From Dehalococcoidia bacterium (GTDB lineage: Bacteria > Chloroflexota > Dehalococcoidia > Bin125): a DNA stretch of 64,000 nt. The notes under the pieces were generated by a model that searched no databases, was not told the origin of the DNA, and worked only from the letters and a program-made list of their open reading frames with translations. The first letter of the stretch is position 1, and each line of letters starts with the position of its first letter. A program made the translations under genes and the position numbers. Location: the NCBI GenBank assembly GCA_963662615.2, contig CAXXSR010000002.1, positions 64,001 through 128,000 of the forward strand, given 5' to 3'. Of the stretch, positions 1-58,043 are shown in pieces.

Positions 1-662
1 CCGATCCGGCTGGTGGCGCTGATGTTGATGGGGGACTGCTGCTCGCCCGTGTTGCACGTGGCGAACGCGGGGCTGAGGTCGCCCCAGGCGCCGGGCCTAT
101 CCGCGGCCCCGGCGTAGGTCCAGTGCGGCGCGCCGCCGCCGTGCGCCTCTTCGGCGGCCGGCTCCGCGTCCCCGTGCTCGGGGGCGGCGTCGACTGCCTC
201 GTGAGGGTCAACGGCGCCGTGCTCCGCGCCGCCGGCTTCCTCCGCCGTCGCGGCCACCTCGTGAGCGGTCGCGGCGTCCTGATCGGCGGCCTCTCCGTGC
301 TCAGCGACGGCGGCGCCGTGCTCGGCGACCTCTCCGTGCTCAGCAACGGCGGCGCCGTGCTCGGCGACCTCTTCTCCGTGCTCAGCGACGGCGGCGCCGT
401 GTTCGGCGACCTCTTCTCCGTGCTCAGCGACGGCGGCCCCGTTGTGTCCGGCTCCGCCGCCCTCCGCCTCGTGCTCGGGCTCGGTGGCAGCGTGCTCTTG
501 ATCAGCCGCTCGCTGCTCCCGCAGTTCGGCCAGCGTCGACCCCTCCCCTGCGCCCTCGGACGCGGCGCTATCGCCGCCGCCGCAGGCCGCGAACAGCAAC
601 ATCGCGGCGACCGGGAAGATGAGCAGAGCCGGCCAGTTCCTCTTGCGTCGAAACATCTGCAT
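1..662 (-). CDS. Alpha-carbonic anhydrase lipoprotein with His/Glu-rich N-terminal repeats (5' part only; runs off the window edge)
   Basis: Manual translation from ATG at 662: MQMFRRKRNWPALLIFPVAAMLLFAAC (lipobox), then EHGAAVAEHGEEVA repeats, then PHWTYAGAADRPGAWGDLSPAFATCNTGEQQSPINI, the typical alpha-CA N-terminal motif. Not in the ORF track because its stop lies outside the window. Confidence 0.85.
   Translation of the reverse strand, partial: MQMFRRKRNWPALLIFPVAAMLLFAACGGGDSAASEGAGEGSTLAELREQRAADQEHAATEPEHEAEGGGAGHNGAAVAEHGEEVAEHGAAVAEHGEEVAEHGAAVAEHGEVAEHGAAVAEHGEAADQDAATAHEVAATAEEAGGAEHGAVDPHEAVDAAPEHGDAEPAAEEAHGGGAPHWTYAGAADRPGAWGDLSPAFATCNTGEQQSPINISATSRI
291..437 (-). repeat. In-frame 39/42-nt tandem repeat, about 4 copies, encoding EHGAAVAEHGE(E)VA
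   Basis: Repeated ctctccgtgctcagcgacggcggcgccgtgctcggcgac units on the + strand. Confidence 0.9.
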
Positions 663-2310: not shown

Positions 2311-4311
2311 TTAGCCGCTCAGCCCCAAGTCGCGGAGGAAGGCGTTGGGCGTGGGCTCGCGGCCGAGAAACTCCCGCACGAGCGCATCGCCGTCCTCAGC
2401 GCCACCGCGCTCCAAGATCATGCGCCGATAATCCCGGCCCAACGCGGGATCGTGGAGACCGCCCTGCTCAAAGCGCGTGAACATGTCGTCGCCGTAGACC
2501 TTCGACCAAAGGTAGCCGTAGTAGCCGGCGTCGTAGCCGAAGAGATGACCGAAGCCCGCCTGAAAGTGCGTATCGCTGACGAAGGGGAAGCCGGTGATGG
2601 GATGGAGTTCCCGCGCGATGGCGTCGGTGTCCTTCCGTTGCCCGGGGCCGTGATAGGCGAGGTCGAGGCGGGCGAAGTAGATCTGTCGCAGCGTGGCGAT
2701 GCCGCTGCTGACGTTCTTGGCCGCCACCATGCGGTCGATCAGGTCCGCCGGCAGCGGATCGCCGCTGCGGTGGTGGCGGGTGAAGCTCCGCAGGACGTCG
2801 GGCTGCCAGCACCAGTGCTCCAGCATCTGCGAAGGCGCCTCCACGAAGTCACGCTCCACGTGGGTGCCGGCAAAGCGGAGATAGCGGGAACGGGTCAGCG
2901 TCTGGTGGAGGATGTGGCCGAACTCGTGGAAGAGTGTGATGACCTCCGAATGTCGCAGCAGCGACGGCGACACGGCGGTGGGCTTGGTGAAGTTCGCCAC
3001 CATCGCGCTGATGGGCCGCTGGTACGTTCCGTCCGCAAGCAGGCGCCCGTTTCGCAGCGGGAAGGCCGCGGCGTGGCCGAACTTGTCCGGCCGCGGGTGC
3101 AGGTCCAGGTAAAAGTGGCCGAGGAGTTGCTCCTCCCGCGCATCGACGATGTCGAAGAGGCGCACGTCCGGATGCCACGGCCGCGCTTCCGCATGGGGCA
3201 GGAAGCGGACGCCCACCAGCGTTTGGTAGACAGCGAAGAGGCCCTCCAGCACGGCGTCCAGCGGGAAATACTCGACGACCTCGAAAGGGTCAACGCGGTG
3301 CTCTTCACGCAGGACGCGCTGTGTGTAGTAGCGCCAATCCCAGATCTGCACGGGGGCATCGCCGTCCAGGTGGCCTCGCCTCGATTCGCGCAGGACCTCC
3401 ATGTCAGCCCGGGCTTTGAACGCCACGCGGCGTTCCAGGTCATCGAGAAAATCGCCCACCGCGTGAGCCGTCTTGGCGACGCGAATCTCCAGCACGAAGT
3501 CGGCCCAGGAGCCGTAGCCAAGGGTCGTGGCGACGTCGTCGCGCAGCGCCACGGCCTCCTCCAGCAGCGCCAGATTCGTCTCGGACGCCTTGTTGTGGTT
3601 CTTGCGAAAGAGCGCTTCACGAAGGGCGCCGTCGTCCGCGGACTCCAGGAACGGGAACAGCTCTGGGTAGTCCAAGGAGACGCGGTACTGCGTCTCCCCG
3701 TTCACCTCTTCGGTGCGCAACCCCTGGATGTACGAATCCGGCAGGCCCGCGAGCTGGTCGCGTGAGAGAAGGAGGGCATCGTCATATTCATCGATGTTGC
3801 GACGAAACGCGATGCTCAGGGAGACCAGCCGCTCTTGTCGTTCCTGGACGTGACGCCGCTTCTGGGGCGACAGATCCATGCCGTTGCGGCGGAAGTCGCG
3901 AAGCTCGTGCGCCAGCAGGCGGGCTGCGTCGCCCTCCAGCGACCGGCCTTCGGCGCTGTCCGCGTACGCGCGCACGGCTCGCGAGATCTCCTCGCGAAAG
4001 CCCAGGGCGGTGGCAAAGGTGTCCAGTCGCTCCTCGTACTCGTGCGCCGTCTCGCGGATGGCGGCGTCGGTCGCCACCTGCGAGAGGAAACCGTAGCGGC
4101 CGCCGGCCTGGTCCAGGAGGTCGGCGATCTCCTCCAGCGGTTGCAGCGTGTTCTGAAACGTCCGCTGGCCCTCCGGCACGGAAGCCAGTTCGTCCACGAG
4201 CGCTTCGGCCCCGCGCATGGCGGCCTCGCAGCCGCTGCCGATCGCGGCCGGCGTGACGCCGGCGTAGTCGAAGGGAGCGAAGGGGTCGGCGGAGGCGTCC
4301 GAAGTTGCCAT
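2311..4311 (-). CDS. M3 family oligopeptidase (thimet oligopeptidase/PrlC-like)
   Basis: HEFGH zinc motif, DFVEAPSQMLE, FGHLFGYDAGYYGYLWS; start placed at MATSD. Confidence 0.92.
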   Translation of the reverse strand: MATSDASADPFAPFDYAGVTPAAIGSGCEAAMRGAEALVDELASVPEGQRTFQNTLQPLEEIADLLDQAGGRYGFLSQVATDAAIRETAHEYEERLDTFATALGFREEISRAVRAYADSAEGRSLEGDAARLLAHELRDFRRNGMDLSPQKRRHVQERQERLVSLSIAFRRNIDEYDDALLLSRDQLAGLPDSYIQGLRTEEVNGETQYRVSLDYPELFPFLESADDGALREALFRKNHNKASETNLALLEEAVALRDDVATTLGYGSWADFVLEIRVAKTAHAVGDFLDDLERRVAFKARADMEVLRESRRGHLDGDAPVQIWDWRYYTQRVLREEHRVDPFEVVEYFPLDAVLEGLFAVYQTLVGVRFLPHAEARPWHPDVRLFDIVDAREEQLLGHFYLDLHPRPDKFGHAAAFPLRNGRLLADGTYQRPISAMVANFTKPTAVSPSLLRHSEVITLFHEFGHILHQTLTRSRYLRFAGTHVERDFVEAPSQMLEHWCWQPDVLRSFTRHHRSGDPLPADLIDRMVAAKNVSSGIATLRQIYFARLDLAYHGPGQRKDTDAIARELHPITGFPFVSDTHFQAGFGHLFGYDAGYYGYLWSKVYGDDMFTRFEQGGLHDPALGRDYRRMILERGGAEDGDALVREFLGREPTPNAFLRDLGLSG

Positions 4312-4478
4312 AGCGTTGGCAACCGTATCAGAGCATTGGCGCTCAGGGCGCAGCGGAGGAGCAGGCGCGCGGGAGGTGGTATACAGGTGCGAGAAAGCGC
4401 CAGCCGGGCAGGATCCGAATGTCGTGACGGGTTGAAGCCGGCCTCGATTGGAATGATGACCACGCCCCGGAAAGCGCC

Positions 4479-5648
4479 ATGGAAGCCGCACTGATCGTCG
4501 TCACTGTGGTCGCCGTCCTCCTCGGAGGCGCCGTGATCTACTTGATCGCGCGCCGGGCACGGTCGAGCGACGTCGATACCGAACCGCTCCTGACGGCCTT
4601 GCGCGGCGGCATCGCAGAGCTGCAGCAGCGGGCGCTGCAAGACAATAGCGAACAGTTCCTTACTCTCGCCGACGCTCGGCTCAAAACGGAGACGGCCCGC
4701 GGCGAGGAGCAGCTGAAGTCGCGCCAGCGGGAGATCGACACGGGGATGCGCAACATTGCGCAGGCATTGGAGAAGATGACCGGGTTCGTCCAAGCCGTGG
4801 ACAAGAAACGCAGCGACAGCATCCTTGAACTCGCCACGGTGACGACCGCGCTGATGGAAACAACCAGTCGGCTCGATCAGGCGCTCGCCGGCGGGCAGAC
4901 GCGTGGACAGTGGGGCGAGCGCATGGCGGAGGACGTCCTCCGCGTTGCGGGGTTCATTGAGGGTGTGAACTTTCGCAAGAACAGGCAGATCGATGCCGGC
5001 ACAACTCGCCCCGATTTCACGTTCCTCCTACCGCAAGAGCGGGTGCTGCACATGGATGTGAAGTTCCCGCTGGCCGGCTACCTGCGCTTCCTTGAGGCGG
5101 ACACGGACAGCAGCCGGACCGCCGCTACCAAGGAATTCCTCACGGACGTACGCCAACGGATCAAGGAAGTCACGACCCGGGATTACATCGATCCCGGCAA
5201 CGGGACACTCGATTACATGCTCGTCTTCATCCCCAACGAGCAGGTCTACGGATTCATTCACCAACAGGACGCGAGCATCGCGGACGAGGCGCTGCGCCAA
5301 CGCGTCGTGCTCTGTTCGCCGCTCACCCTCTTCGCCGTCCTCGCCGTGATGCGGCAGGCAATGGAAAACTTCCGTCTCGAGCAACATGCGAATGAGATCC
5401 TCGCGGCGCTGGGGGCATTCAACAAGCAGTGGACCAATTTCAAGGAGGCCATGGACGGCGTTGGGCGGCGCATCGAGCAGACGCAGAAGGCCTACGACAT
5501 CATGTCGGGAACGCGAGTGCGCCAGCTCGACCGGCAGGTCACCCGAGTTGAGCGACTGCGGCAGGAAGCGGGCATCGAAGCCGTGCTGCTGGATGAAGGC
5601 CAGCAGGATCCGGCCGAGATCCCCCCGTCCGTGGCCGACGTGGATTGA
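4479..5648 (+). CDS. rmuC: DNA recombination protein RmuC
   Basis: N-terminal TM and coiled coil, RGQWGE, RPD...DVKFPL, FIPNE, CSPLTL motifs. Confidence 0.9.
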   Translation: MEAALIVVTVVAVLLGGAVIYLIARRARSSDVDTEPLLTALRGGIAELQQRALQDNSEQFLTLADARLKTETARGEEQLKSRQREIDTGMRNIAQALEKMTGFVQAVDKKRSDSILELATVTTALMETTSRLDQALAGGQTRGQWGERMAEDVLRVAGFIEGVNFRKNRQIDAGTTRPDFTFLLPQERVLHMDVKFPLAGYLRFLEADTDSSRTAATKEFLTDVRQRIKEVTTRDYIDPGNGTLDYMLVFIPNEQVYGFIHQQDASIADEALRQRVVLCSPLTLFAVLAVMRQAMENFRLEQHANEILAALGAFNKQWTNFKEAMDGVGRRIEQTQKAYDIMSGTRVRQLDRQVTRVERLRQEAGIEAVLLDEGQQDPAEIPPSVADVD

Positions 5649-5761
5649 GGTCGAATCTTTACCCCCTTGTATAAGAAGGCGGAGCCTCGGGGGCGCGCCC
5701 CCAGCGAGACGCAGGCGCTTGCTGCCGGACGAGGCAGCGAATCGAGGAGGAGGCGGGCGGC

Positions 5762-53867: not shown

Positions 53868-54962
53868 TCAGATCGCCTCGGCGATGAGCGTGCCCAGGGT
53901 GGCGGTCTCGATCGCAGGCTCGCCTTCCGTGACGAGGTCGGCCGAGCGATGGCCCGCTTGCAGCACCTGTTCCACGGCGCGCTCGACGGCGGCTGCCTCA
54001 GGCTCCAGGCCGAGCGACAGGCGCAGCATCAGGGCGACGCTGAGGATCGCCGCGACGGGGTTGGCGACGCCCTTGCCGGCGATGTCGGGCGCGGTGCCAT
54101 GGATGGGTTCGTAGAGGCCCAGGTTCGTGCCCCCACCGCGACGGCGCCGTGCGCCCAGGCTGGCGCTGGGCAGCATGCCCATGGAGCCGACGAGCATGGA
54201 GGCTTCATCCGTGAGGATGTCGCCGAAGAGGTTCTCGGTGACGATGACGTCGAAGTCGGCGGGGCGGCGGATCAGCTGCATGGCGCAGGTGTCGACGAGG
54301 AGGTGCTCCAGCCGCACGTCGGCGAAGTCGCGGGCGACCTCCAGGGCGATCTCCCGCCAGAGGCGAGAGCTATCGAGGATGTTGGCCTTGTCGACGCTGG
54401 TGAGATGGCGTCGCCTGCCGCGGGCCAGCTCGAAGCCGAGGCGGAGGATGCGCTCGATCTCGCGCTCGCTGTATTTGAGGGTGTCGACGGCCTTGCGGCC
54501 GCGGCTGTCGCGCCAGCGCCGCTGGGGCTTGCCGAAGTAGATGCCGCCGGTGAGCTCGCGCAGGACGACCAGGTCCACACCCTCAACGATGTGGGCTTTG
54601 AGCGTGCTGCTGTCTGCCAGGAAGCCGAAGACTTTGACGGGGCGAATGTTGGCGAACAGGCCCAGCTCCTTGCGCAGGCCCAAGATGGCGTCCTCAGGCC
54701 GGGCCGTGGCTTGGGGGCCGTCCCACTTGGGGCCACCGACGGCGCCGAAGAGGACGGCGTCCTGACGGCGGCAGAGCTCGAGGTCCTCGGGTCGGAGGGC
54801 GACGCCATAGGCGTCGATGGCGCCGCCGCCGACGCGCGCCTCGGCGTAGTCGAAGGCGTGGCCGAAGCGTTGGGCGACGGCGTCCAGGACCTTGACGGCC
54901 TCGGCGATCACCTCGGGGCCGATGCCGTCGCCGGGGAGGAGGGCAATCTTGAAGGCGGCCAC
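53868..54962 (-). CDS. leuB: 3-isopropylmalate dehydrogenase
   Basis: [57 protein letters not shown]. Confidence 0.96.
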
Positions 54963-55063
54963 CGCTGGCTCCAGATCTCTGGGCTCAGTAGAGCGCGCCG
55001 GAGGCCTGGGGGGAAGGGATTCGGACGGGCTCAGTGTAGCACGCGGAGAGGGCAATTGGTTAC

Positions 55064-55092
55064 TTGACACACCTGACCGCATGTTCTAGCCT
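55064..55092 (+). promoter_or_regulatory. Transposase promoter with its -35 inside the left TIR
   Basis: TTGACA-N17-TAGCCT, followed by an AGGAG RBS. Confidence 0.7.
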
Positions 55093-55114
55093 GCCTCCAG
55101 TTTAGGAGTCGGCC

Positions 55115-56104
55115 ATGAGCACCCCAGCGCCCAGCTACCTGGAAGTCCTGAAGTGGTCGGATGCCGAGTGCCGCGCCTACCTGGAGGCGCAACGCTGGCC
55201 CACCGGCCCCGCCTGCCCGAAGTGCGGGAACATCGGGGCGTGGACGATCACGCGCCGGTCCAAGACCAAGAACAAGGTGTCGCAGTTCTACTGCTGCAAG
55301 GCGTGCAAGCGGCAGTTCACTGCCACCGTGGGAACCATCTTCGAGGACAGCAAGATTCCGCTGTCCAAGTGGTTCGCGGCGATATACCTCATGTGTGAGT
55401 CCAAGAAGGGCGTGAGCGCCCACCAGCTCCACCGCCAGCTTGGGATTCAATACCGCTCGGCCTGGTACATGTGCCACCGCATCCGCGAGGCGATGCGGGA
55501 GAAGGGGCCGCGCCCGATACTGACCGGCGCGATTGAGGCGGACGAGACCTACGTTGGAGGCAAGGTGCGCGGCGCGCCGATGGCCCGCTCACGTCGCAAG
55601 GCGCGCAAGGGCCAAGCGTACGCCCTCGGGGACAAGGTCATCGTGTTCGGTCTGCTCCAGCGCGGCGGCGAAGCGCGCACGATAGTGATCCCCAACGTCA
55701 AGCACGCAACCGCGCGGGGGCGACTCGCCCGCCACATCGACTTCAGCAAGGCGAAGCTCTATACGGACGGCCACCCGGCCTATCGCGGGATACGGCACTT
55801 CCTGCCGCACGCTTACGTGGACCATGAGCGGGAGTACGTGAAGCGCGATGCCCCCGAAGTTCACACGCAGGGGATCGATGGCTATTGGAGCATCCTCAAG
55901 CGCGGGCTAACCGGCGTGTTTCACCACGTCGGGCCGGCCTACCTGCCCCAATACCTGCATGAGTTCGAGTACCGCTTCAATCGTCGTCAGATAACGGACG
56001 CGGAGCGGTTTCAGGCGCTGCTTGGGCAGGTGACTGGTCGGCTGGAGTGGTATCGGGAGCGTCCGGCGCTGGGGGGCGCTTCGGAGCCCGAATCAGCTTC
56101 TTGA
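55115..56104 (+). CDS. IS1595-family DDE transposase
   Basis: Zn ribbon RWP..P.CPKCG...CKACKRQFT..VGTIFE.SK.PL.KWF; HTH; EADETYVGG, YTDG, H..I.GYWS..KR...G.FH; YL.EF.YRFN. Confidence 0.95.
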   Translation: MSTPAPSYLEVLKWSDAECRAYLEAQRWPTGPACPKCGNIGAWTITRRSKTKNKVSQFYCCKACKRQFTATVGTIFEDSKIPLSKWFAAIYLMCESKKGVSAHQLHRQLGIQYRSAWYMCHRIREAMREKGPRPILTGAIEADETYVGGKVRGAPMARSRRKARKGQAYALGDKVIVFGLLQRGGEARTIVIPNVKHATARGRLARHIDFSKAKLYTDGHPAYRGIRHFLPHAYVDHEREYVKRDAPEVHTQGIDGYWSILKRGLTGVFHHVGPAYLPQYLHEFEYRFNRRQITDAERFQALLGQVTGRLEWYRERPALGGASEPESAS

Positions 56105-56171
56105 TCGCGTCCGCGAAGTTCAGCGGGTGGAGCGAGACGCGGGTGTCCTGATGCTTCCCGTCGTGTGCCAT
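55977..56171 (-). CDS. Small convergent ORF overlapping the transposase 3' end
   Basis: SLHPLNFADAIKKLI helical motif; resembles short ORFs recalled from IS1595 ends (not verified). Confidence 0.45.
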   Translation of the reverse strand: MAHDGKHQDTRVSLHPLNFADAIKKLIRAPKRPPAPDAPDTTPADQSPAQAAPETAPRPLSDDD

Positions 56172-56206
56172 AGCGCCTGATCAGTTCCTGCTCTCCAACG
56201 GACATG

Positions 56207-56253
56207 CCACGATATGACCGCGGTCACTACCGCGCAACCACTATATGTTGGGG
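56207..56253. promoter_or_regulatory. Tandem NrdR-box-like operators
   Basis: CCACGATATGACCGCG (56207) and CCACTATATGTTGGGG (56238), starts 31 bp apart. Confidence 0.45.
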
Positions 56254-56315
56254 TCCATCTTCATAAGGGGGTTATCTCCCTAGTAGAAAGCCCTAAACTG
56301 GCCCTTAACCAGAAC

Positions 56316-56594
56316 CGCCCGCTTGTGGCGGGCGACCGGCGGACTCACACGGCTGGGGACCACGACAATCCCTAGCTTACGCAGCCCGTCGATCCCCGTC
56401 AAGCGCGAGCTTTTGGCTATGTCTCGCCATTTTCCGGCGCAAGCCGGCTGGTCGTCTCCTACATGGTGGGAGGCGAAAACTGACCCGGAAGGTCGCCGCT
56501 CAGTGAGTGGGGCAAGCGACCTTCCGGGCCCCTGGAGGTGATATATGGCGCGATACCCCGTCGCGTCGATAGAACGGTAGGCCCCTCAGGGGCC
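56316..56594 (+). ncRNA. Candidate structured RNA or leader in the IS cargo
   Basis: Eight consecutive stem-loops, including a GCAA tetraloop and a perfect 13-bp stem (56484-56496/56516-56528); family not recognised. Confidence 0.45.
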
Positions 56595-56661
56595 AACGCT
56601 ACTACTGAACCTTGGCAAGGCCCAGGGCTCTGGATTGTACATAACTCAGCAAAGGAATGCT

Positions 56662-56970
56662 ATGCCTATCAACAGCGATCGCTACGCCTTCACCCCGGAA
56701 AACATCGAGCTGGCCCCGAACGACGCTGGCGTTTATCAGTTGGAAGACGCTGGCGGCATTACCTATATCGGGCGTGCGGCGGGACGGACTGTCACGATCC
56801 ATAGTCGTCTACGGGACCACCAGAGCGGGCGAGAAGGACCGTGCACTCAGGTAGCGACGCATTACCGCCGTGATGTGACCAATCAGGCCGCTGACCGAGA
56901 GGAGAAGCTGCTAGAGGAGCACTTACGGCAACACCGGCGGTTGCCCCGCTGCAACGATGTGATGCCGTAG
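56662..56970 (+). CDS. Stand-alone minimal GIY-YIG nuclease (102 aa)
   Basis: AP...GVYQL.....ITYIGRA...I.SRLRDH...REE.LL....LP.CN; AAAGGA RBS. Confidence 0.85.
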   Translation: MPINSDRYAFTPENIELAPNDAGVYQLEDAGGITYIGRAAGRTVTIHSRLRDHQSGREGPCTQVATHYRRDVTNQAADREEKLLEEHLRQHRRLPRCNDVMP

Positions 56971-56976
56971 CTGGAC

Positions 56977-57207
56977 TCACTTGATCCAGGTTGCGCGACA
57001 GAGGCCGGTGAGGGCAGTACCTGAGCCGGCCTCTTCGCCATCTCGATCGAAAACAAACTCGCGATTGCCGAGGGACAGGTCGCCGTACACGCGCAGACGG
57101 CTCGTCCCGTCCTCAACAGTCTCGAACTGGAAGCTGAGGCCCGACACCGGGTCCTCGATCATCTGCTCCTTGACCGTCCACGGGCGGCCACCGGGCTTTA
57201 TCGGCAT
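56977..57207 (-). CDS. Small hypothetical IS passenger protein (76 aa)
   Basis: GAGGTGG RBS upstream; convergent with the GIY-YIG gene (6-nt gap); beta-rich sequence. Confidence 0.6.
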   Translation of the reverse strand: MPIKPGGRPWTVKEQMIEDPVSGLSFQFETVEDGTSRLRVYGDLSLGNREFVFDRDGEEAGSGTALTGLCRATWIK

Positions 57208-57500
57208 GACCCACCTCGCCCGTCCACACCCGCCGCGCCACTCAAACGTGAGCGGCTCCTATGGTCAAGACCACCACCACCGCGTTGACATCGCGTCTCA
57301 TCCATAGTACGTCCGTTCAGGTGTGTCTAATGCTCAATTACCCGGAGAGCGATATTACAACCGCTTTTGGCGTATCACCAGATGGCGGGTGGCTGAAACG
57401 GGGGGCTGGGGCCAGCAGATGGACAGGGTGAGGACAGGGGAGGGACACGGAGAGGCAGGCAGGGGACAGGGATCGGGCGGGGTCGGGACGGGGAGGGGAC

Positions 57501-57620
57501 AGGTCACTGCGTGCCGGGTCACTGCGTGACGGCCCGGTGGGGGATGGGTCACTGCGTGCCGGGTCACTGCGTGACAGCCCGCTGGGGGACGGGTCACTGC
57601 GTGACGGCCCGCTGGGGAAC
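57501..57620. repeat. 8 x 15-nt array of two unit types, with palindromic core GTCAC-TGC-GTGAC
   Basis: A=gggtcactgcgtg(cc/ac), B=ggcccgctggggrac-like; order AAB AAB AB. Confidence 0.9.
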
Positions 57621-57699
57621 GGCGATGGCTCCCTTACTCGTCTGTTCCGCTGCGGTCCGAGTTTAGCCATCCCTCCGAGATGGCTCGTTCGCGGGTGAC

Positions 57700-57864
57700 T
57701 CAACAGCCCGGATCGCCGTAGCGGCCGCAGCAGTTCTGGCGCCTGCGGGGGCGGTACGACCAGTTGACGAGCATGCGTTTGAGGTCAGCCGGGGAGCGGA
57801 CGCGGCGCATGTTCGTGACGGCGTCGCGGAGGGAGGGGCGCAGGCTGGGAGCGTCGTCGCACAT
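57700..57864 (-). CDS. 54-aa protein with C-terminal CCGRYGDPGC motif
   Basis: Manual translation MCDDAPSLRPSLRDAVTNMRRVRSPADLKRMLVNWSYRPRRRQNCCGRYGDPGC*; below the ORF-track length cut-off. Confidence 0.6.
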   Translation of the reverse strand: MCDDAPSLRPSLRDAVTNMRRVRSPADLKRMLVNWSYRPRRRQNCCGRYGDPGC

Positions 57865-57981
57865 GGGGTTGTTATTTCTCGGTTCGCCCTGCGACTTTTT
57901 CGCCCGCGCTCGCGACTCGTCTGGTCCCGCCCGGCGTGCGTGTCCGCTCGCGCCGGGGCTTGATGATCGGGGCGATGTCGG

Positions 57982-58043
57982 CGCCGTTCGCCCCTTCGAC
58001 AGGCTCCTTCTGCTACGCGAAGGACAGGTCAGGGTGAGCGGTG
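57982..58043. repeat. REP-like palindromic element with nested insert, overlapping the leuD stop
   Basis: CGCCGTTCGCC-CCTTCGACAGGCT[CCTTCTGCTACGCGAAGGACAGGT]CAGGGTGAGCGGTG. Confidence 0.7.

Follow-up and report, generated by a model that had tools for sequence, protein, structure and literature searches.

What is a bare GIY-YIG nuclease domain doing inside an insertion sequence (IS), behind a dense run of hairpins? This question is raised by a 64,000-nucleotide stretch of DNA from a Dehalococcoidia bacterium (contig CAXXSR010000002.1), hereafter the window. In it, a transposon of the IS1595 family carries a gene for a 102-amino acid (aa) GIY-YIG nuclease and, convergent with it, an open reading frame (ORF) for a 76-aa protein, here termed ORF76. 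A first-pass annotation of this DNA had centered on the hairpins and proposed either an RNA-nuclease unit comparable to those of TnpB and IscB or an RNA-regulated toxin or defense module. We find that the conserved convergent pairing of nuclease and ORF76, and not the hairpins, is the strongest signal at this locus, and this conservation is what the annotation missed. We favor, with a probability of about 0.45, the reading that the two genes form a selfish or defensive cassette of nuclease and partner, with the hairpins serving the nuclease mRNA as a cis-acting leader or insulator.

The nuclease and its partner are kept as a convergent pair

The two genes occupy the right half of the element:

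56662-56970, plus strand: minimal GIY-YIG nuclease, 102 aa, Pfam family DUF7508 (from Pfam, predicted fold, and conservation)
56977-57207, minus strand: ORF76, 76 aa, predicted all-beta and without a known family, read toward the nuclease gene

An ORF76 homolog lies directly downstream of the nuclease homolog, on the opposite strand, in 22 of 35 nuclease-homolog loci (tblastn). These 35 loci include duplicates (L092/L093, L100/L116, L108/L109, and L005/L119), and among the 13 loci without an ORF76 match, some are cut by contig ends or partial (L112, L113, and L006). The stop codons of the two genes overlap by exactly 4 nucleotides (nt) in 13 of the 18 pairs examined; the other five are spaced at +6 (this element), +3, -11, -11, and -63. 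This geometry is kept among proteins that are 31 to 63% identical and across contigs labeled as six phyla. The two genes leave no space for a terminator between them, and each must therefore be transcribed into the other. ORF76 is an obligate-looking partner gene of DUF7508.

The distribution of the pair is patchy and mobile. Loci of the pair family are labeled Chloroflexota, Alphaproteobacteria, Thiotrichaceae, Planctomycetota, Ignavibacteriota, and Bacteroidota. Within the element’s own phylum, only about 3 of 400 sampled genomes have a small-frame relative, the other matches there being UvrC-sized frames. A DNA search of 100 relatives with the right half of the element returned a single 36-nt match at chance level. 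Outside IS1595, the pair is found near integrases, FRG-domain proteins, or other nucleases, or without a mobile marker in the fetched flank. Homolog contexts also include nuclease-rich islands, and of two relatives that lack ORF76, one adjoins an integrase and the other is part of a prophage-like region. On one short contig (L097), a tRNA gene (252-324, plus strand) sits ~530 nt upstream of the nuclease gene and may be an integration hotspot. When the presence of ORF76 was scored on a nuclease tree, 6 of 30 inner branches were supported and presence was scattered, with five changes, at least two of which are forced. We draw no order of ORF76 gains and losses from this poorly resolved tree.

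DUF7508 proteins are essentially bare GIY-YIG domains

The nuclease scores 27.6 bits against PF24348 (DUF7508; gathering cutoff, 26) and 18.6 bits against the general GIY-YIG model PF01541, below the cutoff of 22.6. Its AF2 (AlphaFold2) model, made from an alignment of 34 relatives, has a predicted local distance difference test score (pLDDT) of 93.5. The best structural match to this model is the N-terminal GIY-YIG domain of UvrC (Foldseek TM-score, 0.61 to 0.67; E = 7e-4), and the top 10 matches are one plant Grx N-domain and, otherwise, GIY-YIG domains of UvrC. Searching PDB sequences with a profile also leads to the UvrC GIY-YIG domain (E = 5.9e-5), with the GVY, YIG, Arg, and Glu positions aligned.

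The catalytic pattern recognized in the first pass is borne out by conservation. Residues Y25, Y35, R49, H53, E80, and N98, together with C97, are invariant in 34 of 34 sequences; C61 is nearly invariant, and the C-terminal tail LPRCNDVMP is strongly conserved across the same 34. The predicted structure thus points to a GIY-YIG fold in which the catalytic set is intact. Relatives are 99 to 126 aa long and just three are longer (195 to 200 aa), which indicates that the family is essentially a stand-alone bare domain. The protein studied here is the catalytic domain alone, with its ~100 residues all within the catalytic fold. It has no match in PADLOC or PHROGs, and NCBIfam yields only a sub-threshold match to UvrC.

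One homolog (P0169, 195 aa) was called with a CsrA-like N-terminus and lacks the conserved Cys at position 61. We considered this N-terminus as a hint of RNA binding and rejected it: P0169 comes from a single short contig, and its nuclease part has its own Met after a linker. It may represent two adjacent genes read through.

ORF76 is a conserved, predicted all-beta protein

The 76-aa frame that the first pass had listed as an unknown is a real conserved gene. A profile built from 23 homologs retrieves 351 cluster representatives at E <= 0.001, of which 232 are at E <= 1e-10, and family members are nearly all 65 to 160 aa long. The domain also occurs in tandem, with four copies in one protein (P0018, 327 aa) and two in another (P0024, 146 aa), which suggests that the single-copy form may act as an oligomer.

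A five-strand all-beta fold is predicted for ORF76 (pLDDT, 79.7). Foldseek found no match to it at E <= 0.001 in PDB or BFVD, and the best hit of a VIA-align wide search, the N-domain of KhtT, has a Z of 5.7, within the stated noise of that tool. In the protein atlas, the top score is 0.76, to unnamed clusters; no family was found in PADLOC, PHROGs, or NCBIfam. A complex prediction for the nuclease with ORF76, both supplied as alignments, gave a best score of 0.20 (the mark of the tool being 0.32), which speaks neither for nor against binding.

The pair lies within a complete IS1595 transposon

The carrier is a complete IS1595-family transposon (55051-57342), as the first pass had proposed, and both genes lie inside its ends:

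55044-55050, no strand: left copy of the target site duplication (TSD), CGGAGAG, 7 bp, read in the sequence and identical to 57343-57349
55051-55088, plus strand: left inverted repeat (IRL), carrying ACTTGACACAC
55115-56104, plus strand: 329-aa DDE transposase of the IS1595 family, zinc ribbon at its N-terminus (Pfam, NCBIfam)
57305-57342, minus strand: right inverted repeat (IRR), from the inverted-repeat computation
57343-57349, no strand: right copy of the TSD, CGGAGAG, 7 bp, read in the sequence

From left to right, the element contains the transposase gene, a hairpin-rich spacer, the 102-aa GIY-YIG gene, and the convergent 76-aa gene. The terminal inverted repeats (TIRs; 55050-55088 and 57305-57343) are 39 nt long and 74% complementary. 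The transposase matches PF12762 (DDE_Tnp_IS1595; E = 5.7e-34) and PF12760 (Zn_ribbon_IS1595; E = 2.5e-11) in Pfam, and NF033547 (transpos_IS1595) in NCBIfam with 213.9 bits against a cutoff of 75. The element thus has the transposase type and zinc ribbon of the IS1595 family together with TIRs and a direct target duplication. Its closest transposase relatives are those of L091 (58% identical) and L114 (47%).

GC content is ~0.68 to 0.73 in the flanks versus 0.56 to 0.65 within the element. Judging from ORF translations, the insertion lies between leuB (3-isopropylmalate dehydrogenase-like) and leuD-like genes on the minus strand. The element is single-copy in the 2.66-Mb genome, which also holds two distant IS1595 transposase paralogs (38 to 40% identity) on another contig. 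The same insertion site is bridged at both junctions by contigs from two of four public runs (X8 and X9), which differ from the element by ~0.6 to 0.7% (13 of 2209 and 15 of 2072 letters, respectively). No contig of the four runs joins across the element as an empty site would, and neither extra copies nor empty sites point to mobility of this copy. Mobility of such IS1595 elements is therefore shown only indirectly, by sister elements that sit at other sites, each with its own TSD.

Sister IS1595 elements carry the same pair

We find the same pair within the TIRs of three other IS1595 transposons, in two arrangements, and in a further arrangement at a duplicate pair of loci:

L091: layout of the element studied here, transposase 58% identical, 8-bp TSD ACTGAAGT
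L114: layout of the element studied here plus 1.4 kb of further cargo, 8-bp TSD AATGAATT
L115: cassette inverted relative to the transposase, 8-bp TSD CGAAATAA
L108/L109: cassette between two direct left-end (IRL-like) copies, directly upstream of the transposase

The ACTTGACACAC motif of the IRL is common to the ends of L091, L114, L115, and L108. An 8-bp target duplication is usual for IS1595; the duplication here is 7 bp, versus 8 bp in the three sister elements. By contrast with these carriers, none of 80 loci with transposase-only relatives, chosen for the closest transposases, carries the pair, which is thus not a standard part of the IS.

At L108 (770-1725; the same in L109), two direct left-end copies (ATACTTGACACACC) bracket the cassette, and the transposase follows the second copy, as if the cassette had been caught in the course of capture by an alternative end. 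Further cargo is present in two of the sister elements: L114 encodes a TumE-toxin-domain protein with an 88-aa neighbor (3721-4409, minus strand), and L115 encodes a SocA/Panacea antitoxin-domain protein with a 91-aa neighbor (2500-3337, minus strand).

L091 (3394-3433 / 5586-5625) and L114 (2555-2595 / 5652-5692) are inserted in short palindromic targets, GGACGGAACTGAAGTTCCGTCC and GGAAATGAATTTCC, respectively, so that their apparent inverted repeats reach past the true IS ends. A c-di-GMP-I-GGC riboswitch (2393-2483, minus strand; 71.4 bits) flanks the L114 transposon immediately on its left.

The hairpin region is a candidate structured leader

Between the transposase and nuclease genes lies the segment that the first pass had read as RNA (56105-56662):

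55977-56171, minus strand: small ORF, 64 aa, with motif VSLHPLNFADAI, overlapping the 3′ end of the transposase gene and convergent with it
56172-56449, no strand: spacer of lower GC that separates the small ORF from the hairpin array (GC 0.565 to 0.65, versus ~0.68 to 0.72 in the flanks)
56450-56594, plus strand: array of four to five hairpins, a candidate structured leader (folding, covariance model)
56545-56580, plus strand: 11-codon mini-ORF, with GGAGG 6 nt upstream of its ATG

The hairpins themselves are real. Over 56105-56662, the folding z-score is -3.13 on the plus strand and -1.82 on the minus strand; 56430-56540 alone reaches -4.26, and none of 200 shuffles folds as well. As for the remainder of the proposed 558-nt RNA segment, its first 67 nt are coding on the minus strand, being covered by the 64-aa ORF, which the first pass overlooked. 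The spacer at 56172-56449 is presumed to be a divergent promoter region. It contains no sigma-70-like site, and it has no sequence similarity to any of the 35 homolog loci or the other fetched loci.

Hairpins recur upstream of the nuclease gene in relatives. Across 25 loci, the 250 nt upstream of the gene have a mean folding z of -1.84, compared with -0.56 for 34 control segments (Mann-Whitney P = 0.004), the controls being drawn from the same loci, which are not all independent. Values of z <= -2 are found at 11 of 25 loci (6 of 34 controls), and values of z <= -5 at 3 of 25 (0 of 34). The hairpins differ in sequence from locus to locus, and most loci share none.

The leaders of the sister elements show what is shared more closely. 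L091 and L114 are 75% identical over the ~210 nt before the nuclease gene; MAFFT aligns the present element to their leaders only around a shared GGCCCC-loop-GGGGCC hairpin. We built a covariance model, R1, from L091 and L114 alone. Under default filters, R1 picks out no more than its two training sequences from 45 sources. With filters off, its top match on both strands of the window is 56450-56594, exactly where a leader is expected; this match is full length (15.5 bits, E = 0.015), and R1 finds nothing in L115. In the model-fitted alignment of the three sequences, 99.2% of paired cells form standard pairs. Changes on both sides preserve 20 of 41 pairs, versus 1 to 6 when the partners are slid, in an alignment that is itself fitted to the model, and the modeled pairs include several G-U pairs on the plus strand. 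These comparisons are suggestive of an array that is structurally collinear with the leaders of L091 and L114.

Other searches of this region gave null results. Rfam has no family in the element region at E <= 10, nor in 11 homolog loci at gathering thresholds. The element’s hairpins recur nowhere else in the genome and stand on one side of the nuclease gene only, and there is no direct-repeat family within 56105-56662 beyond single chance pairs of 10 to 14 nt.

The mini-ORF that the first pass reported is present, together with its GGAGG, and is not conserved: L091 has no ATG counterpart, and one strain has lost the start codon (ATA at 56547; a single contig at depth 3). We considered leader-peptide attenuation through this frame and set it aside on these two observations.

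A small companion ORF and other features of the carrier

The VSLHPLNFADAI motif of the 64-aa ORF marks a small same-strand ORF downstream of the transposase in ~30 related IS1595 loci; in the present element, L091, and L114, the ORF is antisense and overlaps the transposase 3′ end. Counterparts are found in L091 (4336-4551, minus strand), L114 (3536-3724, minus strand), L115 (2318-2503, minus strand), L058 (4444-4608, plus strand), and others. The product is basic, with the motif (P)VSLHPLSF(D/E)EAI..L, and has no match in Pfam, PHROGs, PADLOC, or NCBIfam; it may regulate transposition.

To the right of the element (57399-57640), a G-rich stretch is followed by repeats of GGGTCACTGCGTG(A/C)C, in which a 15-nt indel of one unit separates strains of other runs. 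Elsewhere in the genome (G000, contig C1, 1576887-1577660; L009), a distant IS1595 transposase paralog lies in a 584-aa open frame, far longer than usual.

A selfish or defensive cassette is the favored reading

Under the favored reading, the cassette would be a self-contained two-gene module of the toxin-immunity kind. The anatomy of the element is certain, and the homology, fold, conserved pairing, repeated carriage by IS1595, and leader collinearity are observations; nuclease activity, its toxicity, the role of ORF76, and a regulatory role for the hairpins are what we infer. The predicted nuclease would be the harmful activity, and ORF76 would restrain or direct it. Because each transcript must run into the other gene, we propose that the convergent overlap couples the expression of the two. 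The hairpin array would most likely serve the sense RNA in cis, as a structured leader or an insulator, and not as a separate guide RNA; it may stop read-through that comes from the transposase side and hold down translation of the nuclease. This reading comes close to the regulated toxin or defense module suggested in the first pass, whereas the RNA-nuclease unit suggested with it is disfavored.

Several results weigh against a cassette of this kind. Nine distinct loci have the nuclease and room downstream of it, with no ORF76 (L004, L005, L098/L101, L102, L103, L107, L111, and L120); their catalytic residues are intact, so the nuclease can exist without ORF76. Neither protein matches PADLOC or PHROGs, and neither was found on sequenced plasmids or phages by tblastn of those collections. 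Type II toxin-antitoxin pairs are normally co-directional operons; here, the adjacent genes are convergent. As to the leader, other GC-rich places in the window reach 12 to 13 bits with R1, and its homology to the sister leaders is suggestive and falls short of proof, because there are three rows in an alignment fitted to the structure. The strand preference upstream of the nuclease gene is not significant (plus strand favored at 17 of 25 loci; Wilcoxon P = 0.07).

The adjoining hairpins could instead be DNA sites of the enzyme. The minimal GIY-YIG protein would then be a structure- or sequence-specific nuclease of single-stranded DNA (ssDNA), as in the Ssn system, with ORF76 as its modulator. 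SsnA is likewise a bare GIY-YIG protein, of 94 aa, flanked by hairpin repeats, as passages of the Ssn paper describe (PMC11893778); the present protein is also a bare domain, and hairpin-rich upstream DNA is enriched across the family. We hold this to be a live rival, less likely than the favored reading. The Ssn repeat motif, SRM, is absent from the element (0 matches to its pattern), the hairpins are one-sided, vary between loci, and are not repeated in the genome, and the protein falls under DUF7508 while remaining below threshold for PF01541.

It is a little less likely again that the pair is ordinary cargo, that is, a nontoxic repair or housekeeping nuclease with an accessory protein, and that the hairpins are transcription terminators left over between genes. 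The conserved tail-to-tail 4-nt overlap and the patchy, cross-phylum distribution in mobile contexts are untypical of housekeeping genes, even though the terminal hairpin (GGCCCC-N3-GGGGCC) is terminator-like, some relatives do without ORF76, and defense databases return no matches.

A bolder synthesis, to which we give slightly less credence than to ordinary cargo, would make DUF7508 a second branch of hairpin-recognizing minimal GIY-YIG enzymes with a beta-protein regulator. IS1595 elements would have recruited it together with its cognate hairpins as a maintenance or drive device, and the nuclease would act on the adjoining structured ssDNA or RNA. If this were true, the unit would be a functional parallel to TnpB and its omega-RNA, built from unrelated parts.

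We regard a role in transposition as more doubtful still. The nuclease and ORF76 might make the second-strand cut at the ends of the transposon, or they might break empty sites for recombinational copy-back, which is the role proposed for TnpB in IS200/IS605. Such a helper would fit the repeated, independent carriage by IS1595 (this element, L091, L114, and L115, with L108/L109 in or beside such an element) and the IS1595 transposase ~4 kb from the pair in L121. However, the absence of the pair from 80 of 80 closest transposase relatives shows that the transposase does not need it, and the pair is found without an IS1595 transposase in the fetched flanks of, for example, L105, L116, L117, L118, and L096. 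The nuclease also has no DNA-recognition domain that would give site specificity, and the element is single-copy; strains from three other studies have it at this site too, with no empty site seen.

Least probable is an RNA-associated or RNA-guided unit, in which a stable noncoding RNA from the hairpin region would bind and guide or gate the GIY-YIG protein: although the array is real, collinear in three related elements with compensatory changes, and folds in favor of the sense strand (56105-56662), Rfam has no match in the element region or the 11 homolog loci, R1 retrieves only its training sequences among the 45 sources under default filters and nothing in L115 without them, the upstream regions of most loci share no sequence, and a protein of ~100 residues is wholly taken up by the catalytic fold. 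Tandem repeats such as those of type III toxin-antitoxin systems are likewise absent.

Comparison with known systems

The UvrC N-terminal GIY-YIG domain is the best match to the nuclease in both structure and sequence. UvrC is, however, a protein of ~600 aa with further domains that works with UvrB in excision repair, whereas the nuclease here is a bare domain that adds an invariant C97, a nearly invariant C61, and the LPRCNDVMP tail.

Like TnpB and IscB with their omega-RNA in IS200/IS605 elements, this element places a nuclease beside a transposase with structured sequence nearby. The nucleases differ in type and size, RuvC (and HNH) there and GIY-YIG here. Those systems have a conserved guide RNA at the transposon end, in contrast to the internal structured region of one IS lineage here, and the present pair is missing from all 80 related IS1595 loci. 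A TnpB/IscB-like unit, as first suggested, therefore finds no backing: there is no Rfam match, the spacer shows no similarity in 35 loci, and the protein is a bare 102-aa domain.

Toxin-antitoxin systems resemble the cassette in part. For type III (ToxIN-like) systems, the tandem antitoxin-RNA repeats upstream of the toxin gene have no counterpart here. Toxin-antitoxin pairs are described as cargo of Tn3-family transposons by Lima-Mendez et al. 2020 (PMC7157771). As in that account, we have a compact two-gene cassette within a transposon, and sister elements here carry toxin or antitoxin domains. The genes here run toward each other, with stops that overlap, and so form no operon; a GIY-YIG nuclease takes the place of the presumed toxin, and its partner lies outside known antitoxin families.

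The closest described layout is that of Ssn (cd10448). Passages of Chenal et al. 2025 (PMC11893778) describe SsnA, a 94-aa GIY-YIG enzyme with a single domain, and the hairpin repeats (NTS/SRM) that flank its gene; the enzyme binds these repeats and cleaves ssDNA close to them. The same passages report that the repeats are also scattered genome-wide in hundreds of copies and that the authors see a resemblance of the layout to an IS. The first-pass remark that no described system with such a layout was recognized must be qualified to that extent, although the defining motif of Ssn is absent here. Both have a single-domain GIY-YIG protein of ~100 aa (within the <150-aa size of that group) and hairpin-forming DNA adjoining the gene, as far as those passages go. 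Here, however, there is no SRM motif, the hairpins are one-sided with no dispersed copies, and the Pfam family is DUF7508. The published degenerate SRM pattern is matched nowhere in 54500-58000, twice in the 64-kb window, and 26 times in the 2.66-Mb genome. The dedicated convergent partner gene is a further difference, none being met in the passages of the Ssn paper on which we draw (PMC11893778).

The literature searched holds no paper on DUF7508, nothing that joins IS1595 to this cargo, and, among work on GIY-YIG proteins and toxin-antitoxin systems, no account of this pair. As far as these searches show, with the supplementary homolog lists of the Ssn study outside their scope, the convergent DUF7508/76-aa pair and its repeated capture by IS1595 have not been described. 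That small stand-alone GIY-YIG nucleases can be site-specific in their own right was shown only recently, as passages on Ssn report (2025; PMC11893778). The present analysis defines a distinct stand-alone family, DUF7508, with a convergent partner, repeatedly carried by IS1595 and other mobile elements. If the toxin-immunity or defense reading is true, it would add a new type of nuclease and an unusual tail-to-tail geometry to the cargo that stabilizes transposons. If the nuclease recognizes the adjoining hairpins, the family could be a new source of structure-specific nucleases. With 102 and 76 aa, the pair is compact and readily testable.

The nearest relatives of the carrier itself are IS1595-family ISs with passenger genes, the transporter-IS variants of ISfinder. 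They share with this element a zinc-ribbon DDE transposase, TIRs, a short TSD, and extra genes within the ends. What sets the present elements apart is their cargo: one particular conserved pair of nuclease and partner, which at least four of them carry.

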